DNA from: Reclinomonas americana ATCC 50394 | Lineage: Eukaryota | Assembly: GCA_048213135.1 (NCBI GenBank) | Contig: PS015373.1 | Location: 15,645 to 57,510 of the forward strand | Length of the DNA: 41,866 nt | Reading direction: 5' to 3' | In this document: positions 2,474 to 41,428 of the stretch, one piece after another | Layout: each line of letters begins with the position of its first letter | Position numbering within the stretch: position 1 is the stretch's first letter | The notes under the pieces: generated by a model | Told to the model about the DNA's origin: nothing | The model's database searches: none | The model's input: the letters and a program-made list of their open reading frames with translations, nothing else | Position numbers and translations under genes: made by a program

Positions 2474-4029
2474 GGCCTCGACAACGACTCCGGCACTCCC
2501 TTCCTCTACACAGAAGCTGTCGAAAGGTGGTCTCGGTCTGTACTCGGTGGTGGAGCGAGCGGCCTCTCTGTTGATCATCAACTCGGCGGTGAAGCTGCTG
2601 ACACACTGCCGACCGCTGACTCGTCGCCGTGTGGCGGAGCGCGCATGCTCCACTGCTCGGTGAAGGCGGCCGGTGGTTGTGTCGACGATTTCTCGCCGCT
2701 GCCGACTGCTGGTTTGGTGGCCAAGTACCCACAGACGAACGAGGTCACAGACGTCAATCGCCAGCAGCTGCCAGTTGCCACGCCGCAGCGGTATTTCTCT
2801 GTGTTGTTGTCTCCTGTTGTTCCCCAGGCTGGTGCTGCTGTGGCTGCTCTTGGTGCAGGTGCTCGCTTCCAAGTGGCCACTGATCCGCATGCCCCTCACC
2901 GCGCTGTTCACTCTAATCTGATGAGTGCTGCTCTCGGGCACGCTCTGAAGTTGGGCGTCAGTGTGGAAGTGCATCCGGCTACTGCTCCGATGGTGGTCGG
3001 ACAGCACTTGGCTGACGGTGGTGTTGTGTTTCCCTTTGCCTCTCGCTTCTTGCCTGCGATGTCACACTTCTACTCCAAGCGCCACATTGCTGGCTGGAAG
3101 GACTTGCGGAAGTGTGGTGCTTTCGTCGACTCCATGACGTGGTGGCTCAGGGCAACGGCATCAGCGAGAAGGAGCAGCGCTCCTTGTGCAAGATGCGAAC
3201 CAACTCCGTCGCGCTCAACAACAAGGTGGCGGTCATCAGCGGCAACCCGGGTGGCCCTGCCTCGCTGTGCCCGCTCTGTGGCAAGGAGTCGGAGTCGCTC
3301 GGACACTTGCTCAACGGCTGTGAAAAGCTGCAGGGCTTGTGGACGACGCGCCACGACAACGTGCTCGACGTTCTCCAAGCGGTTTTGGTGCGGTGCCCCA
3401 AGGTGGACGGTGTGGCGTGCCAGCTGCTGCGCGAGCGTGTCGATGCCGACCTGCTGCCAGCGCCGGCGGACATTGCCAACCACGCCAACTTGGCCAGGCT
3501 CAAGCCGGACCTCACCCATCTGGATTATACCAGAGAGGGGACCGGTGAGATCTGCTCGGTCCAGGTGGTGGAGTTCGCCAACGAAGACTCGGTCAAGTCT
3601 GCTGTCAACGGCAAGAAGGCCAAGTACGAGTCGTTGGTCAAGGCCATCAAGCAGAAGGTCGGCGATCAGGCCAAGGTCGAGCTGGTGGTGCTCCCTGTGA
3701 CCTCGATTGGCACGGCCTCGGCCTTGGTGTCGACTGGCCTCCGTCGTCTCGGCGTGCGCAACGTACGACAGTGCATCTCTCGCCTTTGCACGACAAGCTT
3801 ACGTACAAGTTACTCGATGTTTGTCCAGCGCTGCAAGGGTACCCGGGTGTGCATGGTGGCGCAAGGTCATTCGGTCGGCAATGTGCGTGCATGCAGTCAT
3901 GCACTGTCGGCTCGTGCGACTTTGCCAGATGTGCAGTCTGCAGTGCATACTGGCTGGCACCACCGCGTTTCCGGTGTCAAGACACTTTCCGTTCAGCACC
4001 ACCAGCTTGGAGCGCTGCAGCGCACTTGA
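2474..4029 (+). mobile_element. 3' part of an RLE-clade (R2/NeSL/CRE-like) non-LTR retrotransposon, frameshifted
   Basis: RT thumb-like FLY..KLSKGGLGL (about 2500-2540), W..L..CG...WWL, KMRTN, CCHC knuckle CPLCGKESESLGHLLNGC, RHD motif, restriction-like endonuclease KPDL...VEF...KKAKYESL. No introns. Frameshifts near 2510, 2640 and 3150. The RT core would lie in or beyond the gap 1980-2473. Confidence 0.9.
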
Positions 4030-4220
4030 CCGCAGCATGCATATATGAATTGCTCAGTGTATTCGTCCCTTTATTCCTACCTGCTTAAGCTACACATTTC
4101 ACGTGCGGTGCTACCACCACTTGACAGACTGATTCGCAGTTTGAAGCTTGGATGCGTGCGTTTCGCATTGAACACTACTGACTTTACAATTTACGTCATC
4201 AAACACATCATTTGGTGACG

Positions 4221-7200
4221 ATGAGCGCAAGTGCCAGCGCCGCTGGCTTAGGTTCGAGTGACCCTTCTGTGCATGAGGATGAGCTCGAGTATGAGCATGC
4301 GGTGCCTGTCGATCACGATCGCGAGGATGGCCTTGGCTCGTCATCGTCCACTCATCTGCGGCGCATGCTCGAGTTTATCGACTCCATCACCGAGTCCAAC
4401 CTCGTCCAGTCAGTGGTACATGGCTTGCTCGTCGCACTCGCACGCGCCGAGGAAGGCGCTCAAGACGTCTCGTGCGAGGCCATTCTGAGAGAAACGGTGT
4501 GTGCATCCTGGAACACGATGCGCATGCCCTATATATGTCACAAATTCCACCTCTCACTCACACCGTCGCCGCGCGCGGGTGCCACGACACGCACGCACAG
4601 CGCTCCATCCTCCAGAGCATGATCACCGCAACCTGGAGTGATGGAGGCTACTACTGTCCGGCCGACGCCGGTCGCAACATGATCGACGTCGAGCAACGTG
4701 TTTCATTTTATGAAACATTCATCGTGGACATGGTCACCAGTTGTGTACACGCACACGCACGTGCACGCACCCGTGTCTGTAAGAAGCCCACATGCACGCG
4801 CGTACACGTTCTACACCCACTTCTTGTGTGACGCGTAATGTGTAATGCGTGCTGTGTAGACTCAAATGACTCACACCACTACTCGCTCTTTCTCCACAGA
4901 ACTGTATGAGCGTCGTCAATCAATGCACGGCGCCTCTGGCAGTGCAGCTCGCGGCACTGCTCACTGGCTGCATTCATTCGGGGCGTCTACGACGCAGGAC
5001 GATTATCGCCTGTTCATTCCTCTTTTCGGATCAAGTCTCACTCTCTCGCACGAGAGATCAACGAGCGACCGGGAGATGACGCCAGCGCGGACGAAACAAC
5101 TGATCGAGCTGTCTCTCATCACCTGCCACTTCCTCGCTGCAGACAGGTATCTAGGTTATCGGTTCTGCATACAGGCGCGCGTGTACAAATTCTCTCTTGC
5201 TCATCACATTACTTCTGTTTGGCAGTAACACCGACAAGCCAGAGCACGATCTGGATGGCATCTTGTACAACTTGACGACGTTGCGCGGCGCGTTTGAGGA
5301 ATTCGGCCGCACGAGCCGAGGGAACGATCGCGAGCTGGCGGCAATGCGAATCGACTTCGGCGGTGAATGCATCGAGGAGTTGGTGGAGCTCGCAGTGCAG
5401 GCATCCTCACCAGTGCGCCTCCTTGCTGTGGTGCTGATGCACGACTTCGTGATGCGCGAGATGCTCGGCGAGATGAAGCGCGCGGCGAAATCCAAGAACC
5501 CCGCAGCTGTACCTCTTGATCTTTGGAGCAGGCCGGTGGAGCTGAAAAGACTGAAGGACGCGGCGCGCTGTCTGGCTGCTGGCGTGTCTGCCGTCATTGA
5601 GGATCTGACTCGGTACTCGTACGCCAGGTAAGCACACACACACGCGCTTTCTTTTGTTATGCACTTGCACTTCCTTGGACTGAGTTGGCCGTCACATGCA
5701 CAACAGACTGCACAACTTGCCAACTGTGACGTGGCAACGTGCGCGGGTGCAGCGACTGAGGGTGAAAGAGAAGCTTTCACGCACGGGTGGGAATTGCAGG
5801 TGCGTACGTTATGGACGCTACCTGCGCCGAGTGCGTGCGTACCGGCGGGCCAAAGCAATTCTCACAACTTTTGTGCGTCGCAGTCGGCATTCTGCGGAGC
5901 ACTGCGGGCGTGGTGCACCACCGTCAACAGCAGTCAAGCTCGAGGTGCAACCAAAAGATGGGTGTACGCACAAGTTCGAGGCGCTGCGACGACACAAAAA
6001 CGGCGAGATCTCCAATTTGTATACGCTGTTCGATGCTCAAATGCAGACTCCGCCTCCGCTGGCATCAGTGGTCGCGCGCGCTGCTGAGGCAGAGGCAGGT
6101 CCGGGTGTTCCCACTCTGCGTGCATTCCCCAACACTGATCATGGCAGGTAAGCATGCAATCGCTACTACAGCTGTGGATACAGCTCACTCGTGCAAGAAG
6201 TTGCTCATTCACTCGAGAAACAAACTGCAGGCGCCAGCACGGACACGATTCGGCGACACATGCGTCAGCAAAACACCTGAGAGACCACGAGTTGCTGCAG
6301 CAAGTTCGACGCGCGGCTTGTGAACGTGCTGCATCGCAGAGTGGCGCAGCTAGCGCTGCTGCAGGTGGGGGGGGGGCGGGATCGCCATCAGAATCCCTGA
6401 TGAGAGCACCCCCACTCGCAAGAAGAAGCGTGCAAAGTCGTCGCCGGAGGCCAAGACGGTATTCGTATGTCTGCCGGCTGTTGTGCGTGTGCACATCAAG
6501 GAAAACACTCACGCGATATTGCTGTGTGCATGATCGATCGGTGCGACGCAGGCAAAGAAGGCGCCGAGCACAGCTGCTGCGCCACAGCCGGCGGAGGTCG
6601 ACGGTCTGCAGAGTCCGCAGCACGATGCACCTGCTCGACGAACTGGTGGTACTCGGAGGGGAACAAGGGGAAAGCGCAGACCCATCCACCACTCTGTCGC
6701 TTCTGGTACCACCGGGCCGGCCGAGCGCGACCACGCGGTGAGTTGTCTCGATCTCTGTCCCTTTGTGTGACTGTCGTCTCTCACACTGAATCGATACCAC
6801 ATCAGCCGGCACCGATGGACACATCGTCGACTGGCGTTGTCTCCAACAGCAGTGGCGGCGGTCACGATGACGGCGGAGAAAGCGCTGGTGGAGCAGCCGC
6901 TGCTGCAAACGAGGAGGAGCAGTTTCACTTTGCTTTTGATCGCGATGACGACGACTCCGACAGCAGTGAAGATATCGATGATGAGGATTCTGACTGCGCT
7001 GATGCTGGTGCAACCACCGAGAAATTGGTGCTCACGGTGCGTCAAAACGGTCGACGACGACTTTGTGCGAAAGTGGTTGTAGATCATCAATTGACTGTTG
7101 TTGTGCGTGGCGCAGGACGGGAGAGTGACCATACCTGGACGGGCATTCAACGATTGCCAGCACGCCGGCCTTGTCGCCTGTACCTTTTTCCGACTTGTGA

Positions 7201-10200
7201 ACATGGTATTTCGAGTGGGTGAGGTGTTCACTGCCGAGGGCAGCGCTGGTGGAGCTGCTGCAACTCGTACTATTATAGACGCAGCCGAAACAATTCCCGG
7301 TCAGCTGCTTCTTGATGACACAAACGCTGCTGCTTTACGCAGCTGGTGTGATGTGCGTCACTGGACTTCTTTTGTAGTCGCCAGTTGGCATGAGTCTGAC
7401 AAAGTATTCTTCTCTGCTTGCAGGAGGCGCGCAAGTTGTTGGAGCCACAGCGGACGAGATCATCTGCACCCGTGCCCATTGATAGTGGTTCTGATCCACC
7501 CGTGGCCACTTCTAGTTCAGCACCCACTGGAGCACCCGCCGCAGCACCCGTGGCAACTGCAGGGGGACAACCAGGAGATGTGCAACGGGTGCATCAGCAC
7601 GGCAAGTTTACTAGTAACCACGTAGTCGTGGCGGCGCGCATCGCCAACGAGAGCCAACGGACGATCTGTGGATTTTGGAGGAATGCCTGTACCTTCTTCT
7701 CACTCTTGGGACATTGCGCTGGACGCATTACTGCTGCGACAAAGGCCCTCATCGCCTGCGTTGCTCTTCTCTCCCGGTCTAGGGACGGGGCGAGACGGGA
7801 ACTCGTATTGTCGGCACGCACCTGCACAGGAGGAGCCGAGCGGGGAAGGTGATTGTGAGCGAGCAACCAGCGCGCGTTCTCGTCCTCTCGTGCCACTCTT
7901 GTGTGACTCTGTGTCTCGGCCGACGGTCAACGCGTCACTCAACACTCCATTTAATGCATCTTCCCTTCGCAGGTTACGTGTGTTTCCGACCACGTTGAAA
8001 ACCATTGCTGCAAGACGGTACCGACTGCGTCAAGGAGCTGCCAAGGGTGCGAAGACGACTGCAAAGAACAGAGACGCGGCAAAGGAGAAGGCGGAGGCTG
8101 CTGGAGCAAGTCACACTGCGAAAAAGTTACGTACGCGCGCCTCCGTGCGTGTGTGCATGCACGAAGGCTGAATGTGCCGACGCCTCTTTTGTCAGCAGAA
8201 AAGGGACGGGGATCTCCAAATTCCGCGCCTCCTCAAGGAAGAAATGCGTGTGGATTCAAGTGGACGATGTCAACATGGGAGATGCGTTCTCTGTCAACTT
8301 CCGGCAGTTCAAGGCCAACAGCAAGAGTGGTGCCGCTGCGGCAAACAGGGAGAACACTGAACCGGCTGTGACGTTGCGTGCGCTCTGACTCTGTTCTTCT
8401 CGTACGCGGGCTGCACATCATCCCTTGGGTGCATTCTCACTCGTTCAGTTGTAATTGTTTTCCTTCTTGCTGCATACCGCAGTGTCAACGTTGGCACTTT
8501 TGACATCGTTGGAGACGAAAATGCCGCTGCGCTCCTCGCCCCGACACGTTCACGCTACGTGCGGGTATTCCTTGATCACGATGATGCCACGGGCAGTACA
8601 AGGTTAGCAATATTAATTGGTTATCATGCACGGGTGAGTTAATGATCTTGTTGACGTGACACGCTCTCATCTCCCTCTCTGTTCTAGAATCACACATGCC
8701 CGGCTGGAAGGAATTCGCACGTACAAGTGTGGCCTCACCGCACCATCACTCGCGTTGGCACACGCTGCTTCGCGCAAGGCAAGCCGCCAGTACTCGCGCG
8801 GCAATTGCGTTGTACGCTGTCGCCCGCGTGTCACCTTGTTGGCCCGCACGAAACACACTGTTGAAATTCAAGCCGATTCTGATACTCTGCAATCTATGTG
8901 GATGGATTTGCAGGTGAGTGTGTGTTCCAGTTGAGATGCAAACAACATACCACTGACACGCGCGTACGAACGCTCGTTCTCGTCGTGCATGCACTGATCA
9001 TCATGCGCGTGATGTGTGTAGACGATTGAGGAGCATTTCGCATCGCTTTCGATCGCATCCACGTCCATTACCGAGACTGTGACGTTCTTGAATCGACTCT
9101 GCGTGCGGNNNNNNNNNNNNNNNNNNNNNNNNNNNNNNNNNNNNNNNNNNNNNNNNNNNNNNNNNNNNNNNNNNNNNNNNNNNNNNNNNNNNNNNNNNNN
9201 NNNNNNNNNNNNNNNNNNNNNNNNNNNNNNNNNNNNNNNNNNNNNNNNNNNNNNNNNNNNNNNNNNNNNNNNNNNNNNNNNNNNNNNNNNNNNNNNNNNN
9301 NNNNNNNNNNNNNNNNNNNNNNNATTGAGACAATGCGTGGAAGCAAGAAGCGAGAGGTGTACTCGGCCGGCCTTGCGGCAGTTGAAACCATTCTGGCAGG
9401 AGTGGTGGGCACGCACCAAGATGCCGGTGCCGGCCCATCAACAACTGCTGCCGCCGGTGCAAGTCAGCAGCATCACGAGCTTGCCCTGGGTCTCGCTTCG
9501 AGCGTCGCAGCAGGCCGTAGATTTGTTCGCGAGTTGCAGCCACTTCTACTGGCTGCGGCGGCACCACCACCACCACCACCACCACCACCACCACCACCAC
9601 CACCACCACCACCACCACCTTTAGTGCCACCTCTGACAGCGCCCGTCATCGTTGTCGGCGACGGCAACAGTGGTGCACCTGACCATGACATGGATCCAGC
9701 GCTATCAGCAGCATGTGCTGCTGCGCAACAAGCTCTCGCTGTCGGTACGAGCATGACGACGCACATGGACGAAGACACAGTCGAAGCTGTGCGTGTCGAG
9801 ACTGGTGAGAACTTGCTGTAAGGATCGTGTTGATATCGCAATGTGCTGACTGCAATATCTCATGCGATCAAACTACTGTGCGCAGATGCAGATGGTGGTG
9901 ACCGTGAGCAAGACGATGCATATGGTAATCGCGNNNNNNNNNNNNNNNNNNNNNNNNNNNNNNNNNNNNNNNNNNNNNNNNNNNNNNNNNNNNNNNNNNN
10001 NNNNNNNNNNNNNNNNNNNNNNNNNNNNNNNNNNNNNNNNNNNNNNNNNNNNNNNNNNNNNNNNNNNNNNNNNNNNNNNNNNNNNNNNNNNNNNNNNNNN
10101 NNNNNNNNNNNNNNNNNNNNNNNNNNNNNNNNNNNNNNNNNNNNNNNNNNNNNNNNNNNNNNNNNNNNNNNNNNNNNNNNNNNNNNNNNNNNNNNNNNNN

Positions 10201-12629
10201 NNNNNNNNNNNNNNNNNNNNNNNNNNNNNNNNNNNNNNNNNNNNNNNNNNNNNNNNNNNNNNNNNNNNNNNNNNNNNNNNNNNNNNNNNNNNNNNNNNNN
10301 NNNNNNNNNNNNNNNNNNNNNNNNNNNNGCAGCAAGTGACGGCAAGAAGAACGGCAAGAAGAGGGGCAAACGGGGCCCCGGCAAGAGCCGAAAACAAGCA
10401 CAACAGGAGGTGGACGGTGTGCAATCATCCATCTTTCATTGCGTCGTTGCAAAACGTGTTGTCGAAAGCAGCAACTGATATTATTGTGTACTGCGCAACA
10501 CACAGACACGATTGAATACCATATCACTGGAGCAGTTTGTCAGGCCATCAACCTCATCGGCCAAGCGCCCGGCGTGGACATCGACAGTGAATGCGCACGT
10601 ATTGCAGATGCTCTTCTCTCCGAAATCGATCGAGCCCGTGGACTGGAGGAGGGCATGGCCGACGATGACGGGCGTGAGCAGGAGGGTCGCCAACTTGTGC
10701 AACTCCGACTCGACCGTGCCTCAAGTGCTCTGCTGACTGTCGTCGCCGCGTTCAACAAAGTGTCATTGTCACTCGTGGCATTGTGCCACATAATGCATGG
10801 TGTGCATGTAGCTGGCGTGTGTTTATCTGTCTTGTTGATGTCGTGTGAGCTGACGGTGCGTGCTTGTGCTTGTGCTTTTGCGTGCGGCTTTCAGCGCTGA
10901 GAACCGGCGGCGAGTGGCACTCGCGATCGTACACAGCTGATGGGCATGAAGTGCAGACGCTTGGGGACGACCGCGTCAATCGCTATCTCCGATCTGCAGC
11001 TTGTGTTCTTGACAGTGCACAGGCAGAATTAGGTAAGTTGGCATTGAGACGCGTCGACACAATCCTCCTACCGCACGGATATTATTGCTCACCACCATTT
11101 TCCTCATCACCAATGCACAGAGTCTGCCATCGGCAGTCTCAAATACCGATGCAAGCAAAAGCTCGCCAACAACCGCGACATGGAGATGGGGGAAGACAAG
11201 GCTACCACCAACAACGACGACGGCGACCACACCAATGGCCAGGACGATCGCAACGAAGGAGACATGGCTGCGGAAGTTGATCCAGAAACAGCAGCAGCGA
11301 GTGCAGATCAAGAGGCGGCTGATCGATATCGCATCGCGCTGCTTGAAGCAGATGCCGCATCCATGCTGATGCAGGTGCAGGCAGAGGAGCCAGAGGAGTC
11401 GGACGCCACCGCTGATGAACAAGACAACGAGCCTGAAGAAGATGGTGAGCTGACGCATGTTGATTACTCGCAGCTAATCGCCTCTGCTGTGATCTGACAC
11501 GATGATGATGGTTGGTGTATATATGCAGCTGCTCCCATTGGTACATTGTACACCAGTCAAATGCAGCACATCACCATGGGCGAGGTTTTGCGAAAGGCTA
11601 CTCGTCCGTTGTTGCAGTCTTTTGTGAGTGACTGCGTCGCACGGATGTGCGTGCGGGATGCCGAAGACGAAGGACAAAAATCGGTGCAGGCTGAGCTCTT
11701 TTCAACATTCACCGCGGTTGCCCGAGACGCTGCGAGGCTGTTGATGTCGCGAAAAATGTCGACTGCACCTGATGCGCGAGCGGTGTTCCTGGCAGACGCA
11801 GTTCTCAAGGCTGTCAGCAACACAATCGCTCGTGCCGACCCCGATGGTGAAACGCGTCCGAATGGTGTTGATCGAGACGGCGACGACGATGGCTGTGATG
11901 ACGATCTACATTCGGGTGTTGATGTTGAGGCCGATGGTGGTGGTGGTACGCAACAACAATATCAACAACAACAACATGCTTCCCAATCAAGTGCCGGCAC
12001 TGCTGCGGGGAGTGGTGGTGAGGACGAGCACATCATGGACGTGGATGGTGTCATGGCCAGTGCAACCGGATCTGGTGCTGTGCTCCAGTCGGCGTCGGAT
12101 GCACGAACGCCCACTGCGATGCAAGTTGATGGCAGTAGCAGCAGCGCCCACAACAATGCAGACAAGACAGCACTGTCGAAACCGGTGCGACTTGCCGCGA
12201 AGCGATGTGCGTATGATGGGCAGCGAGTTCCTAACTATCACTCTTGCAGTCGATCTACATCTTTCCTCTTGTACATCTACAGACAGTGCTGTTCTTCTTT
12301 GGTCTACTAGAAGCAGCTGTTCTAGGGTTTTATGTGTCTTGCACGAGTCCACCACGTTTGTACTGTATTGGCATTGGTGTTGGTGCTGTTCAGTGTTGTG
12401 CGCGTGCATGTGCTATCATTTGTGCAGCATGCTGTACAACGTGGTATTTACTTCGTTTCGTGGTGGTTGTTGTTGGGTTTGTTGTTGTTACTGTTGTTGT
12501 TGTTGTTGTTGTTTCTATTGCTGTTGGTAGTGTCGGTGCACCACTGCGAAAGTATGTTAATTAATACCGTTGGGGTTTTTTCATCTGTTGACAGTGCGTT
12601 GGTGGTACTATGGTCCGGTGGTGGTGCTC

Positions 12630-12667
<38 letters not shown>

Positions 12668-15600
12668 GCCAATGACGGGGAATGTGCATCAGTTTTTTCT
12701 TGCTGGTTCTTCTTCACCACATGTTCGCACTTTACAATGTCTTCCATCTGTCGCCGTTCATTACCACTGTGCTCGATTACTGACTCCTCCTCCCACCCTT
12801 TGTCCCAGTCTCCGACGCGATGAGCAGATGCGTAGCGGTGAGTGTGCGACGGGAACGACTTGCTCGCACCGCGCTTCAACATCACCACGCCGCGAGTTTC
12901 TCACAAGCGATTGCAAGCGCAACTGGTGCCGTTGCTCTGGACGACGGGAACCGGTACCGCAAATATGCCACCCTTGTTGAGTCGCGAGAAGCACTGGCAG
13001 CTGCTGAAGCGGCATGTGGTAGTCGACCGCAGATCACAGAATTTGCACGGGCAGCCCATTCAACGGCAGCCGATCTGTCACGCTCAGCCACGTGTGATGT
13101 GGAGTCATTTGAGGAGTGCATGTATGCAGCGGAGAATGCGCTCGACGATGCTGCGTCTGAATTCATTTCTGTCGCCGTTCACACCGCCCGACAGTTTTGT
13201 CAGTCGCGACCGTCATCAGCTGGTGACGGTTCTGCCACATCAGCAGCGCCTCCGACGCCGCCGTCGTCTCAGCATGGTGTGCTGATGGAGAAAATCGCTG
13301 CCTCCAACATGCGGCTTGCGAAGCCGTCGCCAATGCAGGCACATCTCACTGCCGCCGGATTTGTCGACTACTTGCTGTGCACGGTCGTTGGAGTCCAGCA
13401 CGGATCAGACGGCGCAGCAGATGCAATGTACCACGAGCACGTACGGCTTGGATTGGAACGGTCACTGCGAGCGGCACTGTCGCATCGACCGCTGAACGCC
13501 ATCATCCCTGCCGGTTTGTGTTGACTCGGTGTATATATGTTGTTGCTTGCCTCTGCAACTAATAACATCATCATTTTTTGTTGCCAGAGCTGCTGGCGGA
13601 AGTTGCCAATGGTGGTGACGACTATGGCTCTTCGTTGCCTTGCAAGCTGCTGCGACAGCAACTTCCTGCGATTAACAGGCTTGTGCTGTTCGCCAATCTT
13701 CTGCGCCGACAGCTCCGGTACAAGTTCCGCACTCTTGTGCTTGCCGCCAAGAGCATAGCAGATCCAGTGGCGGACATCGACTTGTGCTGGTTGACCTACT
13801 TGGATGCACTGGCGAGCATCGTGCCGTGTACTCTGTCGGTCGACGGTGTCGTGCGCGTGACAAGTGGAGGAGTGTCAGCGCATTTGCAGATGCTGGCACG
13901 AGATGGCGAGAGGAACTCGAACGCATTCTCTCTCGGCTCGTTGTGTGATGAAACGACGACCATCGCACGCGAGCTGCTGCGCGTGAGAAACCTGCTCGAC
14001 AGCTGCATCCTATCCTTTTCGACATGTACATCTGGATCCACTGCGTCAAACGGAGATACTGGTGCAGCAGCAGGGTCTTCTCTGCATCTGTCGGTGTCGT
14101 ATCTGCGAGGACTGTTGTCGCGCATTCGATGTGATCAATCACATGTACAGCCAATGCATGTCGATGATGCCGACACCGACGATGCTGGTCATGCCAGTGC
14201 AGCAGGTGTTGGTGGAGGTGAGACTGGTGTTGTCGTCACTTGTTGTGCATGTATCGATCACTGTTGCATGCATCGGTCTACCACCAGCGGTGTACTTATT
14301 CATCGTCTCTCTGCAGTCACTGCAACAACTCAAGCCACGTCGACAAGCAGTGCACGCATGCGTGCGACGGCGGCTGCCGGTGGCGTTGGCGATTGTGATC
14401 ACAGACTTGACCGTGATGGGAGGTCACGTGGTGACCGAGGTGTGTATCACATTTGTGGATCGTGCGCTGCGCACAGCTTGTTTGTTTGTTGACACACTAT
14501 CTTTTTTTGATTCGCTCGCAGTTGCGAGAGACGACAGTGGTGGTGGTAGCGGTGATGATGGGCGCCAGCTGCACATTTCCGCCGTCGATTTGATGTTCTT
14601 CTTGCACGACGACTTGCCTCGGCTGTGGGTGGCCCTCCTGGGCGACACCACTGCGGATCCAGATGCTGATGCAGTCCAGCTCAACAAGCTCAGTCTGGAC
14701 ATCGATTCTGAGGAGAGACAGCACGTGGTTCACGCCTTTCGCCGCGTTCAGTGGGCTGTGCTTGGCGGCGCTGGGACACAATTTTGGAACTCTCCTCTTT
14801 CTACTGCCACCAACAGTGACGGTGAGCGCACCATATAGTGTGCTTGGTCAGTTGTTGGTTGCATGCATTGCTCATCAGAATGCACCTCTAGATGGCGCTG
14901 CAGATGGTTGTGCCTCCAGTTCCATGGCATCGGCAATGCGCGACCATCATGCTGCAGACATCGAGGACTTTATGGATGGCGTCAACGCACTGTGTGATCG
15001 ACTGCATGCGCAGTCGTCGGCGCCAGCTGCGGCGGCAGATTCACTACTATCGACTGCTGCGGCATCGCAGATGCCATCTCGGTCATCGACGACTGTTGAC
15101 GCGTACCGAGCCTGTGCACTGGTGACTCGAAGGCTTGCCGTTACACTGAGCAAGGCGGCACATGATGCAATGCGATCACTAGAAAGAACTGGTCCGTGTG
15201 ACTGACCGCCAATGGCAAGCTGATTGTGTTTGTGCTGACTGTGGCGCTGACCTTCTCATTGCACAGAATTTGGCGATCGATTCAAGTGCTGGAAGCAACC
15301 GGCCGCGGCATCACAAGAGGTTCTGCAAGCTGACGCAGTGGCGGCAGCTCAATCAGATGGCGACATAGGCACGCTGTACATGTGGCTTTGGAGACCTGAA
15401 CTGATCGCACACTCCCATTTCACCGTGCGAGCGGCGATGGACGCTGCTGCTGCATCCACCTTGCCACCATCAGTGTGCGACTGGACGCTGCAGGAATATC
15501 TGTGCACGGTTGCGGCAATCGTCGATTCACAATTCATGCTCATGCCAGATGGTGGTGGTGATGGTGGTGGAGTCGAGGAGAAGGAATGGCTGACCTCAGC

Positions 15601-16156
15601 ACCTGCTGATGACATGCTGCCACTAGTACTTCCACCGGCTCGAATAATTGACTGCGACGGCATCGTGCTGACGACGGCACGTGCTTATCTTGTGGGAGTC
15701 GAGAACGACATCGATGCGTGTGGGAGTCGAGACGGCGTCACGGTGTGCGCACTGCCGCCCTGTACTCAGAATGAGGATGACAAACAGGTTGCTATTACGC
15801 GCCTTCGAAACTCCTATGACCGCTTGTTTCGGATGTGGACAACACATCGTCTGCAATTGGGACCGGCGTCCTTGCTGCAGCGCATGCAGCCACGTTCCGC
15901 ATCGGTGGCCACGACTGCTGCCGCTCTACCACCATCGCCTGATGTTTCTGTTATTATCGATGGAAGTCGAATAACTGTACAAGTTCATGCCGCGGCTGAG
16001 GGTGAGGGTGAGGGTGACGGTGGCGGTGACGGCGATCATGAGGGTGAGGCGTCCTTGGTGCAGCACATGCAGCCGCGTTCCGCATCGCCTGATGTTTCTG
16101 TTATTTTCGATGACGCTCGAAAAGTTCATGCCGCGCGCGCGGCTGAGGGTGAGCTC

Positions 16157-16187
<31 letters not shown>

Positions 16188-19100
16188 ACGGTGACGGTGA
16201 CGGTGACGGTGTTCATGAGGGTGAGGGTGCCGGTGGTGCACCACGACGCGATAATTGTTATATGATACGCGAGTCGCTTGGGAGACTGGCGGATGTGTGC
16301 TCTGTGTTCATCGACAAGGCGTCAAGTCGTTTACACGACACGGGCACCGACACTCAACTGCAATCCGGCGGATCCACTGCGGAGTGTGGTTCCACCGCTA
16401 CTGAGCGCATGCGGTTGCGCTCTCGTGTCACCGACTCTGATCATGATCAGCAATTTGCGCTGCGAGTGCTTCTACCTGAGGCCGGTTGGCTCGCATGCTC
16501 ATCAGTGTTGGTGCGCACCGCACATCAACTTGCGCCACTCTTCTCTGCTGCGGCGGGTCATGAAACGTCGACACTGTTTGCTGCTGAGGAGGAGAAGTCT
16601 AGTGCGCTGCTGGATGCACTGCTGACGTCGGGTGCCAGCTGCGACATTGATCACCGCCACCGTATCTTGAACTGTGGCGGCCGCGGTGCCGAATGCACCA
16701 GGTGCATGCTGAGGACGAAGATTGACGGGTTCACGGCCGAAAAAACAGCGTTGAAGGCGTTATCAGATCACATCAGGATACTTGATGCTATAGCATGTTG
16801 CGTCGTGCATCACCACAAGGAAAAGAGAAGGGCAGACAGATAATAGTTTTTTTCAGGGAGCATGACAGATCTAGAGTCATGCATTCTGAGACCGAGGGAT
16901 GTCTCACCCAACTGTAATGCTTGTTGCAGGCGCTGTGCAATCGGAACGCAGTACTGCATTGCTGCTTGGCAGGCAAGACGCCCTCGGCGTGAGCGTACAG
17001 GCCGCAGCTGCAGGACACAGACACTTGCTGCCGGCACACGGCAATTGCAATGTCACCAACCAACACCCTCTGGATTTGCGACATGCGAGACTCATGCATA
17101 TGGAAGAGGGTAAGTGTGTAAGTAGAATGGGTTTCCTCTCACGGTAGTTGCTGTACTGTTGTCAGCGTGAGCACGCTCTGCTGTCGCCTCGCACTCTTCA
17201 GTGCGTTGAGCACTTAACTATGTATTTTTCTCCGTGATTGCATTCTAGTTTTCTGTTCCGGTCGCTTGCTGCACTTCCTTGTGTCGTCTCTGCAGCTTCC
17301 ATGTGTGGGGTGGAGTCAATAATAATTCTCTCGTCGCCCTCTTTTCTGGTGTCCCTCTTCCTGCAATGCTCGTTGCAACTGACAGTACGCATCATGATCA
17401 GTTCACGAATCGCTGCTGCGATACACGAACAGTTTGAGCTCGAGCATTTTGACACCAGTGCACTGGTGCACTGGTAATCGTCAGCTAGAAGTTGTGCATT
17501 CTCTTGAACAGCGTTTAGTTGCAGAAAGAAAGCACATGAGATTTGCTGGCGATCTCTGGTACGCTGCGATGATTCTCATTGCTGTGGACGGATCAGAGCG
17601 AGTTTGTTTTCCACGTGCACATCCGTTGTCATCAGTTCTGTGGGTTGTTCTGTGGGTTGCGTGCTCAGCATCTCCCTCTCTCTCTCGCTCTCTTCTCGCT
17701 CCCTATCGATGGACTGCCTTTCGCACCGCCTCTCTGTTAGCTGAATCATTCTACTTGCGCAGTCACGAAGCCGACGAGCGTGGTGGCAGGCCTGCGGCAT
17801 GTTGCCTTCACGCAGTCCGAGCAACTCATCCGGTACCTCGTTACTACCAGAAACGAGCACCGCGGCCGGTACCGGGCTGCACATACACGTGGTGGCGCCG
17901 AGGATGACCGCGATGGCCACGCTGACAGCAACAGTGGTGTTGACCCAGCGAAGCCACCTGCCATGCTCGCGTCGATGCCGCCGATCGCGACGTCGATTTC
18001 AATGGAGCCAAAAACCGATCATCAACACTACTTCGGGGCGAGGCGGTCGTGTCGAAGATATGGTGAGACTATCAACAATGAGCGAGTACGGTTGCGATCA
18101 CTTTGCTCATTGTCCTCATGTCCCAGAGTTGCTGAGGGCACGGCGGGGTCTCATTTCCATGGTAACGTGGCTTCGCAATCATCATTCCGTCCGTGCTGAG
18201 GTGTCGCCTGCAGCCGCGCTTTCGGGCGGTAGTCGAAGGCAGCGGCGAGGTCGTCGACACCGGCGACACGGCGGCGGTGGTGGTGGTGGTGGTGGTGAAC
18301 CTGCTCCTGTTGCCGATCCCGGTGCTGCTGCTCCTTCTGCTGCTCCTACTGATGCAGCCACTGGTGCTGGTGCTGCTCCTGCTCCAGTTGTTGTCACTGG
18401 TGCTGCTGCTGCCGCTGTTGCTGCCGCAATTGCTTCCGCTGTTGCTGCCGCCGCTGCAGGTGCTGCTGCTGGTTCCACCACTGGTGCCGTTGCTGCAGCT
18501 GGCGGCGACGACGACGACGATGATGATGGTGGTGATGTCCACATGCACGCGCCTGACTGCAGCAGCGATGATGGCAGTGGCGACGACCATGGAATCATGC
18601 ACGTCGATGGCAATGGTGATGGCGGTCGGCTTCTCGATCGGGGTGTCCCCGTTGCTCTTATTGTGGACTGTGATGGTGGGAGTGAGAGTGGTTCAGCAGC
18701 TGCTGATGTCATGCACGTTGATGGTGATGGTGATGGTTGTGGTGGTGGCGCACCGCACATGTTCATGCATGACGACGTACACACGCACACCGAAGAGAGA
18801 GTTGAAGGCAATGCTGGTGCCGATGGATACGGTGACTGTGGTGGTACCGGTGACAGTGGCGCCGGCTGTGGCGTTGGTGATCTGACCGTGGTGCCCGGGC
18901 CCGCCGGCATTGAGGAGGGTGGTAAGAAGGGTGCAAGTGCATCGGCTTCTCCGGCGACTGAGCACTGCCCCTGCTGCTGTTCGTGCACGTGGATGAGCGT
19001 GTTCAAGGATTCCGACTGTCTGGTTTGCGGGCTACCATTCACAGAGTGCCGTGGGAGGCATTCACGAGTGGAGAAAGCCTGTGGGGTGTGGAAGACTACG

Positions 19101-20440
19101 GACGAATCGAGATGCTTATGTGGGCTCGACAAGGGTATTCGTTGCTATGTATCCGTGGCCACCGCTGGTGAGTTCAATTGCACTGCTCTCTTTCTCCCTT
19201 CCTCTCTCTGCATTTTGTTATCTGTGTCGAGTTTCCCCATGGCTACCACCGACTTCCTCACTGTTCGTCTCTTTTTCTTTCTCTTTTGTGTCTCTACAAC
19301 CTCACACAACCTGCCGTTGTGTATATTGATATTCATGTCCCATTCCACTCTGCAGGCGGCAATGTCGGCCGGTGGGAGATTGTTTATTTTGGTGACGGAT
19401 TCGCCGAGAAGTGCATTCTTCCCGTGCTGCGTCAGCAGGCTCGGTTGCGACGCATTCTTGGTGATTTCGGAGGTCTCGTTGACAAGGGTGTTCGCAAAAA
19501 ATACGAGCGTCGACTGGCGAACACCACCCGCAAACTGAGAGCGAAGCGCTACAACAATGCGCGCAACTTTGTGGACCAGTTGCGTAACAGTCGTTGCTCC
19601 ATCCTGTTGCTGTTGACGTCTGCGGGTACTGACGCGCTGTGCATGTGCGCGCACGTGAAATAATGCAGGGTGGTGGTCGTCCACGCTGTGGTGGCGGATC
19701 CCAACTTCTCTGCCTCGATTTCAGACATGTCGCAGCGAAAGAAGTTCGTCGCAGTCGGCGACGATGGGCTGGCGGTGTTGGAGCGACTGCTCAGTGTCGA
19801 CAACGTGATGAAACTGCAGTACTCTGGATTCGGCGACCAACGACGTGACATGAAGTCAGTGGTGCGTGCGTCTCCTCCTTGCTAGCAGGCCGATATCGAT
19901 CGCAGCAAGCGGCACTTACCCACGCAAGCACGCTCTCTCTCCTTCTGCGCGCGATCGCTTGCAGGAAGCCAAGGCACGAGTGTGTGCACAGCACGATGCG
20001 TCGTTTGCTAGATGGGTGCGGAGGGAGGTCAGCGAGGCCGGCTCAACTTCCCGCTGCGTAGCGTGCGGCAGGTGGCGCAAGGCTGGCCCGAAAAAGGAAC
20101 TCGTCTGCAGCAACACCGAATGCCCGTTGCACAACGCACCCGTGCCTCGCGACGGAAGCTCCGGTTTTACCATCGCACTGCACAGTCTGAAGGTGGTGGA
20201 TGTGTCGCGCCTGGTGGAGGAGAAGAAGGACGATGATGCCGACAAGGGCGGCAAGAAGGGTGGCCTCGGTGGCAAGAAGGGTGGCCCCGGTGGCAAGAAG
20301 GGTGGCCCCGGTGGCAAGAAGGGCAGCAAGACGGGTGGCACGGTGGGCAAGAAGAGTGGCAAGACCGTTGGAGGGAGGAAGCGTGAGCGCCCTCTGTCGT
20401 CGGAATCAGCATCTGACTCCGATCCATCAGAGAAGGATTC
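4221..20440 (+). CDS. Fanzor2: Giant multi-exon Fanzor2 (IS607 TnpB-like) protein, about 3,800 aa, 3' end in gap
   Basis: Phase-compatible GT-AG exon chain: 4221-4496, 4601-4739, 4900-5146, 5226-5627, 5707-5799, 5884-6147, 6231-6458, 6552-6737, 6806-7036, 7116-7352, 7424-7848, 7973-8125, 8196-8372, 8483-8602, 8688-8913, 9022-(gap)-9804, 9886-(gap)-10416, 10506-10799, 10895-11032, 11121-11444, 11529-12206, 12809-13513, 13588-14217, 14317-14439, 14522-14821, 14892-15191, 15267-16631, 16930-17109, 17763-18062, 18127-19167, 19356-19578, 19669-19861, 19965-20440+. It needs one extra base in the G10 run at 6367-6376 and continuity across two N gaps. Confidence 0.72.
7622..8913 (+). CDS. WED/REC-like N-terminal module of the Fanzor2 protein (sub-region)
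   Basis: Ordered motifs resembling IS607-TnpB/Fanzor2 N-termini: VVAARIANESQRTICGFWRNAC (cf. RixPxxeQkxxLxxW), LRVFPTTLKTIAARRY (cf. vPxxikxxA, 7986-8009), ISKFRASSRKKCVWIQVD (cf. kFRSrKxxxxxxi, 8218-8265), then beta-strand-like exons. Matched from memory of the family, not by alignment. Confidence 0.6.
9562..9619 (+). repeat. (CCA)n coding repeat (poly-Pro)
   Basis: About 19 Pro codons inside an exon of the giant gene. Confidence 0.95.
12466..12668. repeat. Intronic (GTT)n microsatellites
   Basis: GTT tracts at about 12466-12512 and 12630-12668 in the 602-nt intron 12207-12808. Confidence 0.9.
15865..16226 (+). repeat. In-frame direct duplication of ~180 bp within an exon
   Basis: Copies 15865-16047 and 16048-16226, both ASLxQxMQPRSAS..PDVSVIxD..VHAA..EGEGEGDG..HEGE. 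Confidence 0.9.
19110..20190 (+). CDS. RuvC nuclease plus C4 zinc finger of the Fanzor2 protein (sub-region, 4 exons)
   Basis: Spliced product CGLDKGIRCYV...EIVYFGDG...LRQQARLRRIL...RKLRAKRYNNARNFVDQ...VVADPNF...DMSQRKK...VEAKA...EVSEAGSTSRCVACG...LVCSNTEC...PRDGSSGFTIAL. RuvC-I Asp 19128-19130, alternative Glu 20034-20036, Cys at 20055/20064/20106/20121, RuvC-III Asp 20151-20153. Introns 19168-19355, 19579-19668 and 19862-19964. Confidence 0.9.
20247..20322 (+). repeat. 21-bp coding tandem repeat (GGKKGGP/L) in the Fanzor C-terminal tail
   Basis: ggtggcaagaagggtggcccc, about 3.5 copies, followed by the basic stretch GGRKRERP. Confidence 0.9.
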
Positions 20441-20593
20441 NNNNNNNNNNNNNNNNNNNNNNNNNNNNNNNNNNNNNNNNNNNNNNNNNNNNNNNNNNNN
20501 NNNNNNNNNNNNNNNNNNNNNNNNNNNNNNNNNNNNNNNNNNNNNNNNNNNNNNNNNNNNNNNNNNNNNNNNNNNNNNNNNNNNNNNNNNNNN

Positions 20594-23500
20594 AGCAGCC
20601 ACGTCGTCGATCACGCTCCCTCCATCGCAACAAAGACGACGATCGGCAGTGGAAGGCGTGGATCGAGAGCGAAGAAGATCGACTGGGAACTCGTCGTCAT
20701 TACGATGACGACGACGACGATGACGACGATGATTACGATGATGATGATGATGGCAGTGATCGCCGTGATGGAGCAAGCGACTTTGATGATGGCGACGATG
20801 ACGATGATGATGAGGGCAGTGATGGTCGGCGATTTCGTCGGCTGTCGGCGACACTGGGACGAGTGTCGTGGGACGCCAGCGAACCCGATGAGTACGCCAG
20901 GAGGAGAACATCGCGTCGGCGATCGTCGGCAGTGCCGGAGTTGCCGTCGTCGCGGGGTGGCAAGCGAGGAGGAGGAGCGAGAGGGCGAGAGAGCGAGTGG
21001 ATGCAGGCAGTGAGCCAGGAGATTGCCAAGGCGCGCGCGGATATGCATCTCACCATCTCGCGCCTCAGCAACGTGAATGCCGAGTTGAGGGAGCAGCAGG
21101 CGGCCGCTGATCATACGGTGGCGCAGTTGCGGTCGGAGCTGGCCGACCGAATGGGGGAGGTGTCGGCGCTGAAGGAGCAGTTGTCGCGGCGGGCGCCCAG
21201 CGAGGAACTGACGAACAAGGGTTCGATGGTCGTGCGAGCGGGAGTGGTGGTGTGTGTTGCTTTAGTTGACTGTTTGCCGCGCAGTTGTCGACTTGCAGCG
21301 GGAGCTGCGGCAGCGTGATCAGCACCTGCAAGACACCGTCTCCAAACTTCAACACATGACGCACCAGTATCGACAGGCCGACGACGACAAGCAGATTGTG
21401 CAGAAACGATTACGTGAGGCGCAGGAAGTGATGGAGACGCTGCGGCAAGGTGTGCATCTCTGTCTCTCTCTGTGTACTTTGCCGGTTGGTTAACGACAGG
21501 TGTGATTTGCAGAAAAGGAGACGCAGCTGATCACCGTGCAGCGCTCGTACGAAACGAGAGTCGCCGAGCTGCAGAGCGGACTGAGTGAGCAAATGGCGAT
21601 TTGTACGCGCCAAGAGCTCGAGTTGAAACAGGCACGATCGCAGCTGGCCGGCACCAATTCGCTGCAGAAACAGTATGCGCTGGCGCAGGCACAGTGGGGC
21701 GTTCGGTGGGTTTCTGTGACAAACGCCAGTGTGGCCTGTGATGGGTGCTGTCTCACATTGCAGGCGACGCGTGCAACAGAGAAAAGGAAAATGAGGAGCA
21801 CATTAATGCGCTGCAGCACGAGCTGAAGCAACTGGCGGTGCAGAAAGATCAAGAACTGCGCGACGTTCGAATCTCGCTGGGTGCCGAGGTGGAGGCGGCG
21901 CGCAAGGATGCCGAGCGTCGGTTCGACATGCTCACATGCGTCTCCGCCAGCACAAAACGACGTTGGTTTTCTCATCTTCTATCCCATGTCGTGCGATGTG
22001 ATGCAGGGTGCGGGTGGCCGAGGAAATGCTGCAGCAGGGCACATTGCGTGCCGAGCAACGCGTGCGGGAGGTGGAGCTTCGTGTGCGCAAGGAGGCCACC
22101 AAGATCCAGTCGCTGGTCACGAAATTCAAGGGCAAGGAGGAGGAGCTGTTGGCGCTCAAGGAGGAGCGTGTGCGTCTGGAGCGGCAGGCGTCGAGCATGG
22201 AACGCGACGCACGGGCAGCAAAGAAAACCATTGCCGAGTTGCAGACGGAGCTGGACGAAGCAAGCAAGGTACGCGCACGCGTGTGTGTGCGTGTGCGTCC
22301 TCATTTGTTGACACTCGGTGCAGAAATGTGCAGAGGAAAGTCGCGAGGCAGAAAACTGCCGGACACGTGCGCGCCAGGCTGAGTCGCAGCTCGAACTGGT
22401 GCGCGAGCGTGACAACAGCCGGCTGGCGCAGTTGCAAGAACAGGCGGCCAATGCCACTCGCGAGTTGCAGGTGGCCAACGAGCACGCCGCGCAGCACCTG
22501 GCCGAACTGCAGCGGGAACACGAAACACGGACGCGCGACCTCACCGCCTCGTACGAGCACCGTTTGGAGGAGTCAGCGCAGCGCGAACAGACTGCATTGT
22601 CGCGCGCCAAGCGCGCCGAGCGGCGACTGAAGACGCTTGAGGTGTGTTTTGCCACGCGTGTTTGTGTGGTTTCCTCATCTCAACGTCTTATCCCACGCCC
22701 CGTGACAGTCACAACTAAAGGAGGCCGAAGAGGAGCAGGCGCGCAAGCAGCAGCTGATTGACGAGGACCGCGTCTCACATCGGCAAGTGGTGGAAGGCAT
22801 GAAGCAGCGACTCAACGAGGCCCAGTCACGCATCCAGACACTGGAGGAGGACTTGCGCACCGCCGAGGCCAACCTGGAGGAGGCGGAGACGTGGAGGCGA
22901 CAAGTGAAGGAGCGGCAACAGAGCGAGGAGCGTGCGCAGCGCGAATTGCAGCGCTTGCAACTGGAGTTGACACGCACTGTGGAGGCTGGCGAGGCGTTGC
23001 AGGCGCAGCTGGCGAACGCCGACAGGTATGCGGACTCTGTCATCGCGCAAGTATTTTGACGATTCACTTACATGTGACTGGCAGTCGCATCAAGGAGTTG
23101 GAGCAGGCGCTGGCGCACGAGACCAAGCTTCGCGGTGAGGTCGCGCGCAAGAACACGGAGCTGGGCACGCGGTGCTTGCGGGTACGCGGCGTTTTTATCG
23201 CTTGAGGTGGGTGACATGCTCACCGCACCGAAAATTATAACGTGCAGGCGGAGGAGAAGGCGCAAGAGGCTGCACTCGTTCTGGAGGCGTTGCTCAGCGA
23301 GACACGCAGCCATGCATCGCCAGTTGCGTCCATCGCAATCGATGTTGACGCGGACAAATACTGATCTCCCTCGCCTTGTGCAGGCCTTCCTCAAATCGTC
23401 GCTTCTCCTAAAGGAGCTCATGCCACCCACCGAGCCAGTGTCGGTACTGGTGGGAGAGCCGCCCACCTCCAAAGTCACGTCTGTCAAGAGTGAGGCAGCT

Positions 23501-24166
23501 TCGCCGGTGCGCTCGTCGCCTCCAAAACCACCACGGCTGGCGTCGCCGCCGAAACGAACCGCAGCGCCGGCGGTGATCTCCAGTGTGACCTCGGCGGCCG
23601 CAGTGGTTGCGACAATACCCGTGGAACCGGAGGAACAGCAGAGTTCGGCTCGAGCACTGCAGAGTCGAGAGGAGCAGCGTCGCATCCTGCAGGAGCTGGC
23701 GCAAAAAGCCAACCTGACTCGCCACGCCGACTCGCACGTGTCGCCCACTGCTCCGGCCTCGGTGACTGCAGTGGCAGGCTCACCGCAACGCTCACCGGCT
23801 GCTGGCAAGGCAGGGTCGCCAGGTCATCGACAGGCGCAGGCGCAGCAGCAGCCAGCTGGCGTCGACTCTGACGGTGACGCCGATGACCAGGTGTTGTTTG
23901 ATGCGGAAGCCGAGCAACGATCCACCAAGTCCGCGCGCCGGTTGCCTTTCAGTGCCGGATCGAGTGGCAGACGACCGTCGCACGCTGACGCCTCCGATGG
24001 CGACGAGGGCGACAGTGAAGGCGACAGCGAGCACGATCGTACTCGACGGGGTCCAGTGCGGCGGCGCTCACTGGAACGGTCATCGCTTCTCGGCACGTCA
24101 GCGCAGCGCCGCTTGAGTGCAACATTGCGCGATTTATCACAAGTGACCGAGCGCTCGGTGTGTTGA
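20594..24166 (+). CDS. Multi-exon long coiled-coil protein with acidic N-terminal and Ser/Pro-rich C-terminal regions; 5' end in gap
   Basis: Successive E/Q/R/L/A-rich heptad-like exons (e.g. EQRVREVELRVRKEATKIQSLVTKFKGKEEELLALKEE) separated by short GT-AG introns; TGA at 24164-24166. Family not recognised. Confidence 0.75.
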
Positions 24167-24369
24167 TCCCTCGTCGCTCCCTGGAATAACACTCTCTCTG
24201 TTTGACTTACCTCCCGCTTGACAGTCGGATGACCGATCACCGCCAGCGCCAGTGGCCAGCGCCGAATTGCTGGAGCATCGCGAGGAAATGGCCAGATTAC
24301 GCAGTGCGGTGGGCCTCTCGCGTGCCAGTCGATGACACAGTGAATCATTCCGACGAACTTCAATTATTT

Positions 24370-40080: not shown

Positions 40081-40426
40081 GAGTGTGTGTGTGTGAGAGA
40101 GACGAAATCGTCGCAAATTGGTCAATCACTTCTCTTGCGCTTCCGCAGCGGCGGGGGTGTTGTTTCTCTTAGTCCGTTCTTGATGAGAAGAATGGTGACG
40201 CCGCGTCGGTGGTGACTCGAGCACACGCTGCTCTGCTGAGGATTGCTCAGTCACTTTGAGTCGGGCATCTCTTCACTCCACCTCTGTGAGGTGCGTTGAC
40301 GCAGTAGCCCACGGTGTCTGCAGCTGTGTCTCACGCCTCGCATTCACCTCTGCAGCTGGCCATGGGCAACAAGCCAGCGCGAATTTTTGGTTGAAGGCGT
40401 GGTGCTCTCAGTTTCCTTGCCTCACT

Positions 40427-40476
40427 ATGAGCGCAGCATCTGCTTCGGCGTCATGCACGAACCAGTCGCGCGTCCA

Positions 40477-40507
<31 letters not shown>

Positions 40508-41196: not shown

Positions 41197-41428
41197 NNNN
41201 NNNNNNNNNNNNNNNNGCTTGGTTGGAAACTGCAATTTCTATCGATATTCTGCATGTTTTGCACTGCATGCAGCAACAGTGATCTTACATGCTCACTCAT
41301 CTTTGACTGCCATGCAGGTCCAGCGTTGGCGGTGGTGGTGCGCTCTTGAAACGAAGTACAAGACCACATTTGCTCTCCGAAATTTTGACTGTAGGCGGGC
41401 GTGGTGCTCCCGGCTTCCTTGCCTCATG

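Follow-up and report, generated by a model that had tools for sequence, protein, structure and literature searches.

The closest described systems to the gene considered here are the eukaryotic Fanzors and the bacterial TnpB proteins. The gene is an intron-rich model, M1, predicted on the forward strand of a 41,866-nucleotide stretch of DNA from Reclinomonas americana ATCC 50394 (contig PS015373.1, positions 15,645 to 57,510). This whole stretch is referred to as the window, and all positions given below are counted from its first letter. One report (PMC10530073) describes Fanzors as proteins of about 600 residues which have acquired introns, carry disordered N-terminal regions with nuclear localization signals (NLS), and have a rearranged RuvC glutamate. 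As regards intron phase, a study of human genes (PMC3632108) gives phase proportions of 46%, 33%, and 21% and an over-representation of symmetric exons, and (1,1) exons are found there to encode more disorder than asymmetric exons (24.16% versus 17.17%).

M1 resembles a Fanzor in several respects. It is eukaryotic, interrupted by introns, and provided with basic NLS-like runs. Its tail contains, colinearly, a RuvC-I motif (GxDxG), a CxxC...C...C ribbon, and an RD-type RuvC-III, and its only family matches are weak ones to TNB and guided_TnpB. Judged by eye, the canonical RuvC-II glutamate appears not to be in its usual place; for Fanzors a rearranged glutamate is described in PMC10530073. Unlike the Fanzors, for which that report gives about 600 residues, M1 has at least 2,660; moreover, no WED or REC domain was detected in it, no transposon ends were seen, and all its scores lie below the family thresholds. 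With respect to bacterial TnpB (IS200/IS605; E. coli IS609 InsQ), the tail of M1 aligns to the C-terminal half, whereas the N-terminal half finds nothing in M1, which is modelled as a spliced eukaryotic gene. As in human genes with symmetric (1,1) exons, M1 has 15 internal exons flanked by phase-1 introns and a product that looks largely disordered. Unlike those of exon-shuffled genes, its exons vary from 33 to 1,365 nucleotides (nt), are not copies of one another, and contain no known domain, so that there is no sign of module shuffling. Among literature titles and abstract openings, no Fanzor with a kilobase-scale extension and no host-adopted eukaryotic Fanzor was found.

The explanation preferred here, tentatively and at slightly less than an even chance, is a single intron-rich gene which consists of an orphan extension and a divergent TnpB/Fanzor tail and whose phase-1 introns are driven in large part by composition. 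According to this explanation, the long part of about 2,350 residues would be an N-terminal extension or a fusion partner of the tail, and the tail would be a very divergent TnpB/Fanzor-type module made up of RuvC and zinc ribbon (TNB). Fourteen to 16 of the 17 predicted introns would interrupt a GNN codon behind its first base. Phase 1 would result in large part from composition, as donors need G|GT and donor-like hexamers such as GGT-GAG fall in phase 1. With regard to function, the protein may be nuclear, as is suggested by its basic NLS-like runs. The tail might be a module of Fanzor origin that binds DNA or acts as a nuclease; it would either be inactive or have a rearranged glutamate. 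The disordered extension might act as a scaffold.

Gene model M1 and its predicted junctions

The forward strand from about 9.3 kilobases (kb) to at least 20.44 kb most likely carries one intron-rich gene of at least 2,660 residues, the continuity of which we infer. Junctions were predicted from sequence signals by a generic splice matrix which was not trained on the M1 gene, and all stop-free GT-AG pairs linking each two neighbouring frames were ranked with it. A first-pass annotation of the window had named 15 donors and claimed that all were of phase 1. GT is indeed present at all 15, and each falls in phase 1 of the long open frame which closes shortly after it; G occupies position −1 in 14 of them. 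The top-ranked pair is of phase 1 at 12 of the 15 junctions, and at two more (10800 and 14822) phase 1 is best once pairs re-using the previous donor are set aside. At junction 16632 the best pair is 16702-16972, which is of phase 2 and clearly better, and the donor of the first-pass annotation is outside the top six. Altogether, the annotated donor is within the top pair at 8 of the 15 junctions and within the top six at 14 of the 15.

M1 was assembled from the named donors, frame-compatible AG acceptors, and one added intron (19626-19724). It extends from 9324 to 20440 (+), its 18 exons giving 2,666 codons with 0 stops, and its introns are 16 consecutive ones of phase 1 followed by one of phase 0 (19862-19964). 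The lengths of exons 2-16 are multiples of three in 15 cases out of 15, and 13 of the 15 are symmetric if junction 12 is of phase 2. The earlier suggestion that symmetric exons can be skipped or gained without a frameshift thus holds arithmetically for M1, whereas only 5 of the 17 introns have lengths divisible by three. Some runs of the window are masked as N and are unreadable, including 9109-9323, 9934-10328, and 20441-20593. The exons of M1 are the following, from 5′ to 3′.

9324..9804 (+), exon 1, readable part after the masked run 9109-9323; possible ATG at 9333; donor 9805 of phase 1
9886..10416 (+), exon 2, 531 nt; spans the masked run 9934-10328, its interior being unverified; basic NLS-like run KKNGKKRGKRG...
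10608..10799 (+), exon 3, 192 nt
11000..11032 (+), exon 4, 33-nt micro-exon; frame held with or without it
11121..11444 (+), exon 5, 324 nt, acidic
11529..12206 (+), exon 6, 678 nt; motif M[HDQ]VD[GD] at 12035 and 12119
12809..13513 (+), exon 7, 705 nt, helical-looking; preceded by a 602-nt T-rich intron
13588..14217 (+), exon 8, 630 nt; motif M[HDQ]VD[GD] at 14154; predicted six-helix fold with a predicted local distance difference test score (pLDDT) of 43.2
14317..14439 (+), exon 9, 123 nt; preceded by intron 14218-14316
14522..14821 (+), exon 10, 300 nt
14958..15191 (+), exon 11, 234 nt; weak donor 15192 (GTCCGT)
15267..16631 (+), exon 12, 1,365 nt; internal duplication and (GAGGGT)n repeats; 3′ end ambiguous
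16930..17109 (+), exon 13, 180 nt (16973-17109 in the phase-2 variant); donor 17110
17763..18062 (+), exon 14, 300 nt
18127..19167 (+), exon 15, 1,041 nt; Gly/Ala/Asp run, Cys-rich stretch, and GLDKG at 19122-19139
19356..19625 (+), exon 16, 270 nt; weak donor 19626 (GTACTG)
19725..19861 (+), exon 17, 137 nt; in-frame TAA at 19661-19663 inside the preceding intron
19965..20440 (+), exon 18, readable part; zinc ribbon at about 20055, RuvC-III-like motif at 20148, Lys/Gly repeats

Some of these boundaries admit more than one reading. The donor of exon 6 is ambiguous (12018, 11946, or 12207), every option being of phase 1. The 99-nt intron 14218-14316 is in frame and stop-free, and its retention would lengthen the product by 33 residues; it may just as well be coding. 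The 3′ end of exon 12 may lie at donor 16632 (phase 1, weak) or at donor 16702 (phase 2, stronger), or the frame may read through to stop 16841, and the three possible readings of junction 12 are accordingly phase 1, phase 2, or stop 16841 followed by ATG 16899. Exon 18 runs into the masked run 20441-20593, where the 3′ end of the gene is hidden. Two repeats were also observed along the model: a (CCA)n run in exon 1 (9552-9619) is read as about 19 prolines, and long (GTT)n runs (12449-12677) lie inside the 602-nt intron 6.

The M1 frame has independent support from codon composition: in 16 of the 17 exons of at least 100 nt it has more G at codon position 1 than the other frames, and the overall value of G at this position of M1 is 0.445. 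An exon-chaining program, which over-splices at low intron penalties and was used only for comparisons of strand and phase, gives a score of 167.0 on the forward strand versus 25.5 on the reverse strand. Chains restricted to a single phase score 150.2 with phase 1 only, 111.9 with phase 0 only, and 91.4 with phase 2 only. The strongest donor of M1 is 17110, and CTGAC-like branch sites together with pyrimidine tracts are recognizable by eye in the short introns.

The Fanzor/TnpB-like tail and the long part ahead of it

The tail corresponds to the last 235 residues or so ahead of the Lys/Gly-rich end of exon 18. Three patterns, namely RuvC-I (GLDKG, 19122), a CxxC...CxxxxC ribbon (about 20055), and RuvC-III (RDGSSGFTIAL, 20148), occur once each in the six frames, in that order and all on the forward strand. 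At the motif level, the RuvC-I and RuvC-III aspartates are kept, and the position of the canonical RuvC-II glutamate is taken by leucine in the spliced model when compared by eye with InsQ. Also by eye, the helical segment of exon 16 is read as the one that links RuvC-I with RuvC-II. The only Pfam match of exon 18 is PF07282 (Cas12f1-like TNB; E 0.065), and its only NCBIfam match is guided_TnpB (NF040570; E 0.1), at profile positions 339-379 of 389. Residues 674-711 of the 741 of Cas12p match exon 18 weakly (E 0.92), and in the nearest named Atlas clusters of this exon, with scores of 0.89, PF07282 is present in 43% and 28% of the members. When the spliced 235-residue segment is aligned with the C-terminal half of E. 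coli InsQ, z is about 3 and 14 of 1,000 shuffles reach the score. By eye, the helices from RuvC-I to RuvC-II and a TS(Q/R)xCxxCG motif align between the two, and BLASTP against InsQ is non-significant (best E 0.29).

Other searches contributed little. A sequence search of the PDB returned only unrelated weak matches for the RuvC-I piece and exon 16, exon 18 found no relative among viral contigs and metagenome contigs, and PHROGs gave a single weak match without a name. Between 8 and 24.5 kb, neither transposon ends nor inverted repeats other than trinucleotide runs were observed; Rfam gave no match, and the 3′ end of M1 runs into masked sequence. On the basis of the motifs and alignments, the tail is quite probably of TnpB/Fanzor origin, and the label Fanzor is plausible for the tail alone.

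Orphan sequence with much Ala, Gly, Asp, and Ser makes up the first 2,350 residues or so, which extend from 9324 to the RuvC-I motif, and M1 as a whole contains 14.1% A, 9.9% G, 8.6% D, 8.2% S, and 8.1% L. Blocks which look helical alternate in the long part with runs that are acidic or made of Gly or Pro and originate in trinucleotide repeats, and repeat-derived runs of the types (CCA)n, (GGT)n, (GAY)n, and (GAGGGT)n are present. The long part matches no Pfam or NCBIfam family, and exon 8 has no relative among metagenome contigs. Trinucleotide repeats are also the main repeat class of the entire interval from 8 to 24.5 kb.

A short motif, M[HDQ]VD[GD], has five copies in the window when all six frames are translated, and every one of them is in an M1 frame: two in exon 6, one in exon 8, and two in exon 15, where they lie within the Gly/Ala/Asp low-complexity run (18597 and 18711). 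A rough estimate from residue frequencies gives about 0.1 matches by chance. Exon 15, which bears the motif, has the RuvC-I motif at its end, and this sharing of M[HDQ]VD[GD] is the best argument for assigning the nuclease tail and the long part to one gene. The motif often has I or V just before it. It resembles what we take to be a SUMO-interaction-type hydrophobic core with acidic flanks.

Predominance of phase 1 among the predicted introns

Judged by the predicted sequence signals, the phase-1 run is real and exceeds chance. In the other genes of the window, comprising the upstream gene described below and five further regions, phase 1 is found in 12 of 38 introns; in the five regions alone, 14, 11, and 5 introns are of phases 0, 1, and 2, respectively. 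The part upstream of M1 had been said to use mostly phases 0 and 2, and the model of 4212-8105 does so, with phases 0, 1, 2, 2, 2, 2, 0, and 2.

It had also been proposed that a G|GT junction bias in sequence rich in Gly, Ala, Asp, and Glu may be part of the cause. This proposal is borne out, as 44.5% of M1 codons begin with G, and for 15 of the 16 phase-1 introns the interrupted codon is of the GNN type. Among unused donor-like GT sites in M1 exons, 139 of the 222 scoring at least 0 are of phase 1, as are 16 of the 21 scoring at least 4. Behind this bias of unused sites are the hexamers GGT-GAG and GGT-GTG, which encode Gly-Glu and Gly-Val. Unused acceptor-like AG sites, on the other hand, have no phase-1 bias (52 of 126; 1 of 7 at a score of at least 4), whereas the used acceptors scoring at least 4.5 are all of phase 1 (11 of 11).

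Two models were compared with the observed run. If introns are inserted according to the exon-side consensus, 39-47% of phase 1 is predicted, and the probability of at least 15 in 17 is near 5e-4 or less. If donors are drawn from the coding sequence (63-76% phase 1), the same probability is 0.02-0.19. Composition accounts for a large part of the phase-1 run, and the remainder is unexplained. Two sources of such runs were rejected. Comparison of the 17 introns all against all gave one 12-nt match only, and BLASTP of exon against exon gave low-complexity matches only; since neither the introns nor the exons are copies of one another, introner bursts and tandem exon duplication are not the cause. 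The phase-1 run is a compact case in which it can be asked how far protein composition alone sets intron phase.

Alternative readings and the surrounding genes

A number of results weigh against a single gene of this architecture. As regards the model, three donors are weak (15192, 16632, and 19626, with scores of 1.9, 0.7, and 1.5), the exon 12 frame reads on to stop 16841 with an ATG next at 16899, and masked stretches cover parts of exons 1, 2, and 18. The unconstrained chain is 17 units above the phase-1-only chain by way of frame switches in low-complexity stretches; such switching inside low-complexity runs is nevertheless disfavoured because the M1 frame keeps the highest G at codon position 1. 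As regards the product, the exon 12 frame finds no homologue when compared with proteins of 806-2,300 residues, and the predicted folds are of low confidence for both exon 8 (all-helical, pLDDT 43.2) and exon 18 (pLDDT 46.2). The RuvC-I exon piece has no family match and low Atlas recognition, and the remaining exon pieces of the tail, exon 18 excepted, likewise match nothing. The PF07282 match reaches 13.8 bits against a cut-off of 26.3, so that the threshold is missed though the four cysteines are present, and the guided_TnpB match, with 11.8 bits against a cut-off of 100, is below its threshold too. Lastly, phmmer with exon 18 against 1.84 billion representatives yielded 4 hits at E ≤0.001, none of them a TnpB; they are repeat proteins which are matched in 3 to 16 stretches. 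Other readings of the locus were weighed. An unlikely one is that two forward-strand genes are present, the first, for the helical and acidic protein, ending at stop 16841 and the second, a Fanzor-like gene of about 800 residues, starting at ATG 16899 and composed of exons 13-15 plus the RuvC exons, in which case junction 12 would be an artefact of the way open frames were chained. Indeed, donor 16632 (GTGCCA), scoring 0.7, is the weakest of the 17 and is outside the six best pairs, the exon 12 frame is open up to that stop, the ATG at 16899 is in frame with exon 13, and some 800 residues would be closer to the roughly 600 given for Fanzors in PMC10530073. However, M[HDQ]VD[GD] is common to exons 6, 8, and 15 and absent elsewhere in the six frames, the gap from stop to ATG is just 56 nt, the good alternative splice 16702-16972 holds the frame open, and phase-1 introns lie on either side of junction 12. 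Distinctly unlikely is the absence of any working gene, the locus being a decayed Fanzor relic in which the frames are a by-product of GNN-rich repeats and the apparent introns come from abundant GT and AG sites. A relic would be consistent with the fact that no exon of the long part has a homologue or family, the in-frame TAA at 19661 between two RuvC pieces of the same frame, the missing canonical RuvC-II glutamate (by eye), the commonness of donor-like sites (222 unused GT sites score at least 0), and the long open frames which the repeats contain in antisense too. Against it stand a codon-position periodicity in 16 of 17 exons, a large strand asymmetry of the chain score (167.0 versus 25.5), the rarity of strong unused acceptors (7 at a score of at least 4, 1 of phase 1) beside 11 used ones of at least 4.5 that fit the frame, and the CTGAC-like branch sites and pyrimidine tracts seen by eye in the short introns.

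The first-pass annotation had taken the region for one Fanzor reaching from about 4.2 to past 20.4 kb, in which WED lies before 9022 and an insert of about 2,300 residues occupies the linker between WED and RuvC. This is very improbable. The size stands as a codon count, since about 2,350 codons separate 9324 from RuvC-I; an insertion of that size is unsupported. The open frames are on the same strand and closely spaced, the sequence of 8361-9026 is in part strand-like, the interval from 8.1 to 9.6 kb can be bridged by an over-spliced chain, and the intron-phase regime shifts near 9 kb, possibly at the edge of an inserted block. Yet searches of NCBIfam and Pfam gave no WED or REC signal in the upstream frames or in the exons before RuvC-I, and the frames of 4.2-9 kb have no TnpB or WED signal. 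Nor did the N-terminal half of InsQ find one (best local score 40 versus a shuffled-window maximum of 47; chain z 1.0-1.45); these searches are limited by the poor sequence conservation of WED and REC. In addition, the frame of the upstream model's last good exon stops at 8169, exon 1 is separated from the candidate strands by a further stop (9027-9029) and a masked run, and the phase-1 block reaches the RuvC-I exon and the next one (19168 and 19626), beyond any insert. Since the introns that follow the RuvC-I exon and exon 16 also belong to this block, it does not represent a cassette inserted into an otherwise different gene, and an N-terminal extension or fusion fits better, as the simpler reading, than a linker insertion. 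Exon 12 contains by eye, in colinear order, look-alikes of the REC/WED motifs of TnpB (EKEWLTSAP, SYDRLF, and LLPEAGWL), which were rejected as they have neither statistical support (chain z 1.0-1.45) nor a family match. A TnpB-like core could start in this exon, which would reduce a linker insertion to about 560 residues; this is statistically unsupported. The region from 4.2 to 8.2 kb may be a separate gene, because it has its own ATG, the in-frame stop at 8169, and different intron phases; onward splicing is possible. It is modelled as follows.

ATG at about 4221 to stop 8169 (+), upstream orphan gene model, nine exons, starting MSASASAAG

Several donors of this model are of the CAG|GTAAG type, at which the intron itself makes the in-frame stop; the model (4221-8169) matches no Pfam or NCBIfam family.

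The consequences differ according to whether M1 is correct. If it is, the protein would be far longer than the Fanzors of about 600 residues described in PMC10530073, would perhaps have an altered nuclease core and a very large disordered extension, and would suggest a host take-over of a eukaryotic TnpB. If M1 fails, an ordinary orphan low-complexity gene would lie beside a Fanzor relic. It is decidedly doubtful that a host-adopted, Fanzor-derived RuvC-TNB module has been fused to a disordered scaffold of about 2,350 residues which grew by trinucleotide-repeat expansion and is divided into symmetric phase-1 exons, so that in-frame isoforms of different length could result from exon skipping. 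Such a fusion, if true, would be a eukaryotic exapted TnpB delivering to nucleic acid a large adaptor in which acidic M-x-V-D-G motifs are repeated.

The 3′ side of M1 is followed at 20636-24314 (+) by acidic and long coiled-coil exons, whose introns are of phases 0, 1, 2, 0, 0, 2, 0, and 0. The motif RRLSATL is found near both ends of this region, at about 20.9 and 24.1 kb. The M1 frame may continue into the coiled-coil exons of 20.6-24.3 kb, with the masked run 20441-20593 intervening.

The window is eukaryotic in character, with a GC content of about 55% and short GT-AG introns in its genes. M1 has among its neighbours a Sas10-like gene, RCC1 repeats, a kinase, a HECT domain, and part of a non-long terminal repeat (non-LTR) retroelement. 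The first of these is placed as follows.

32854-34272 (−), Sas10/Utp3-like gene

The ten best-scoring of its 15 library hits, to an MMETSP transcript, green algae, and a liverwort, are only 31-43% identical. The protein library contains no close relative of the organism, so that failed homologue searches are weak evidence of orphan status.

An open frame at 3016-4029 (+), adjoining the masked run 1980-2473, has a weak match to zf-RVT (PF13966, E 0.0028) and resembles the zinc-binding C-terminus of the reverse transcriptase of a non-LTR retroelement. At 37261-39464 (+), an exon resembling a protein kinase and a HECT-like domain on the same strand chain into a single open model, which may be a kinase-HECT fusion gene or two adjacent genes. 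Finally, an open frame of 535 codons at 40199-41806 (+) contains two near-identical copies of about 130 residues, SAASASASCTNQSRVQRRRRR and ETDGRATEQQADHTFVVRR, about 1.1 kb apart, and their near identity at the end of the window points to a recent local duplication.

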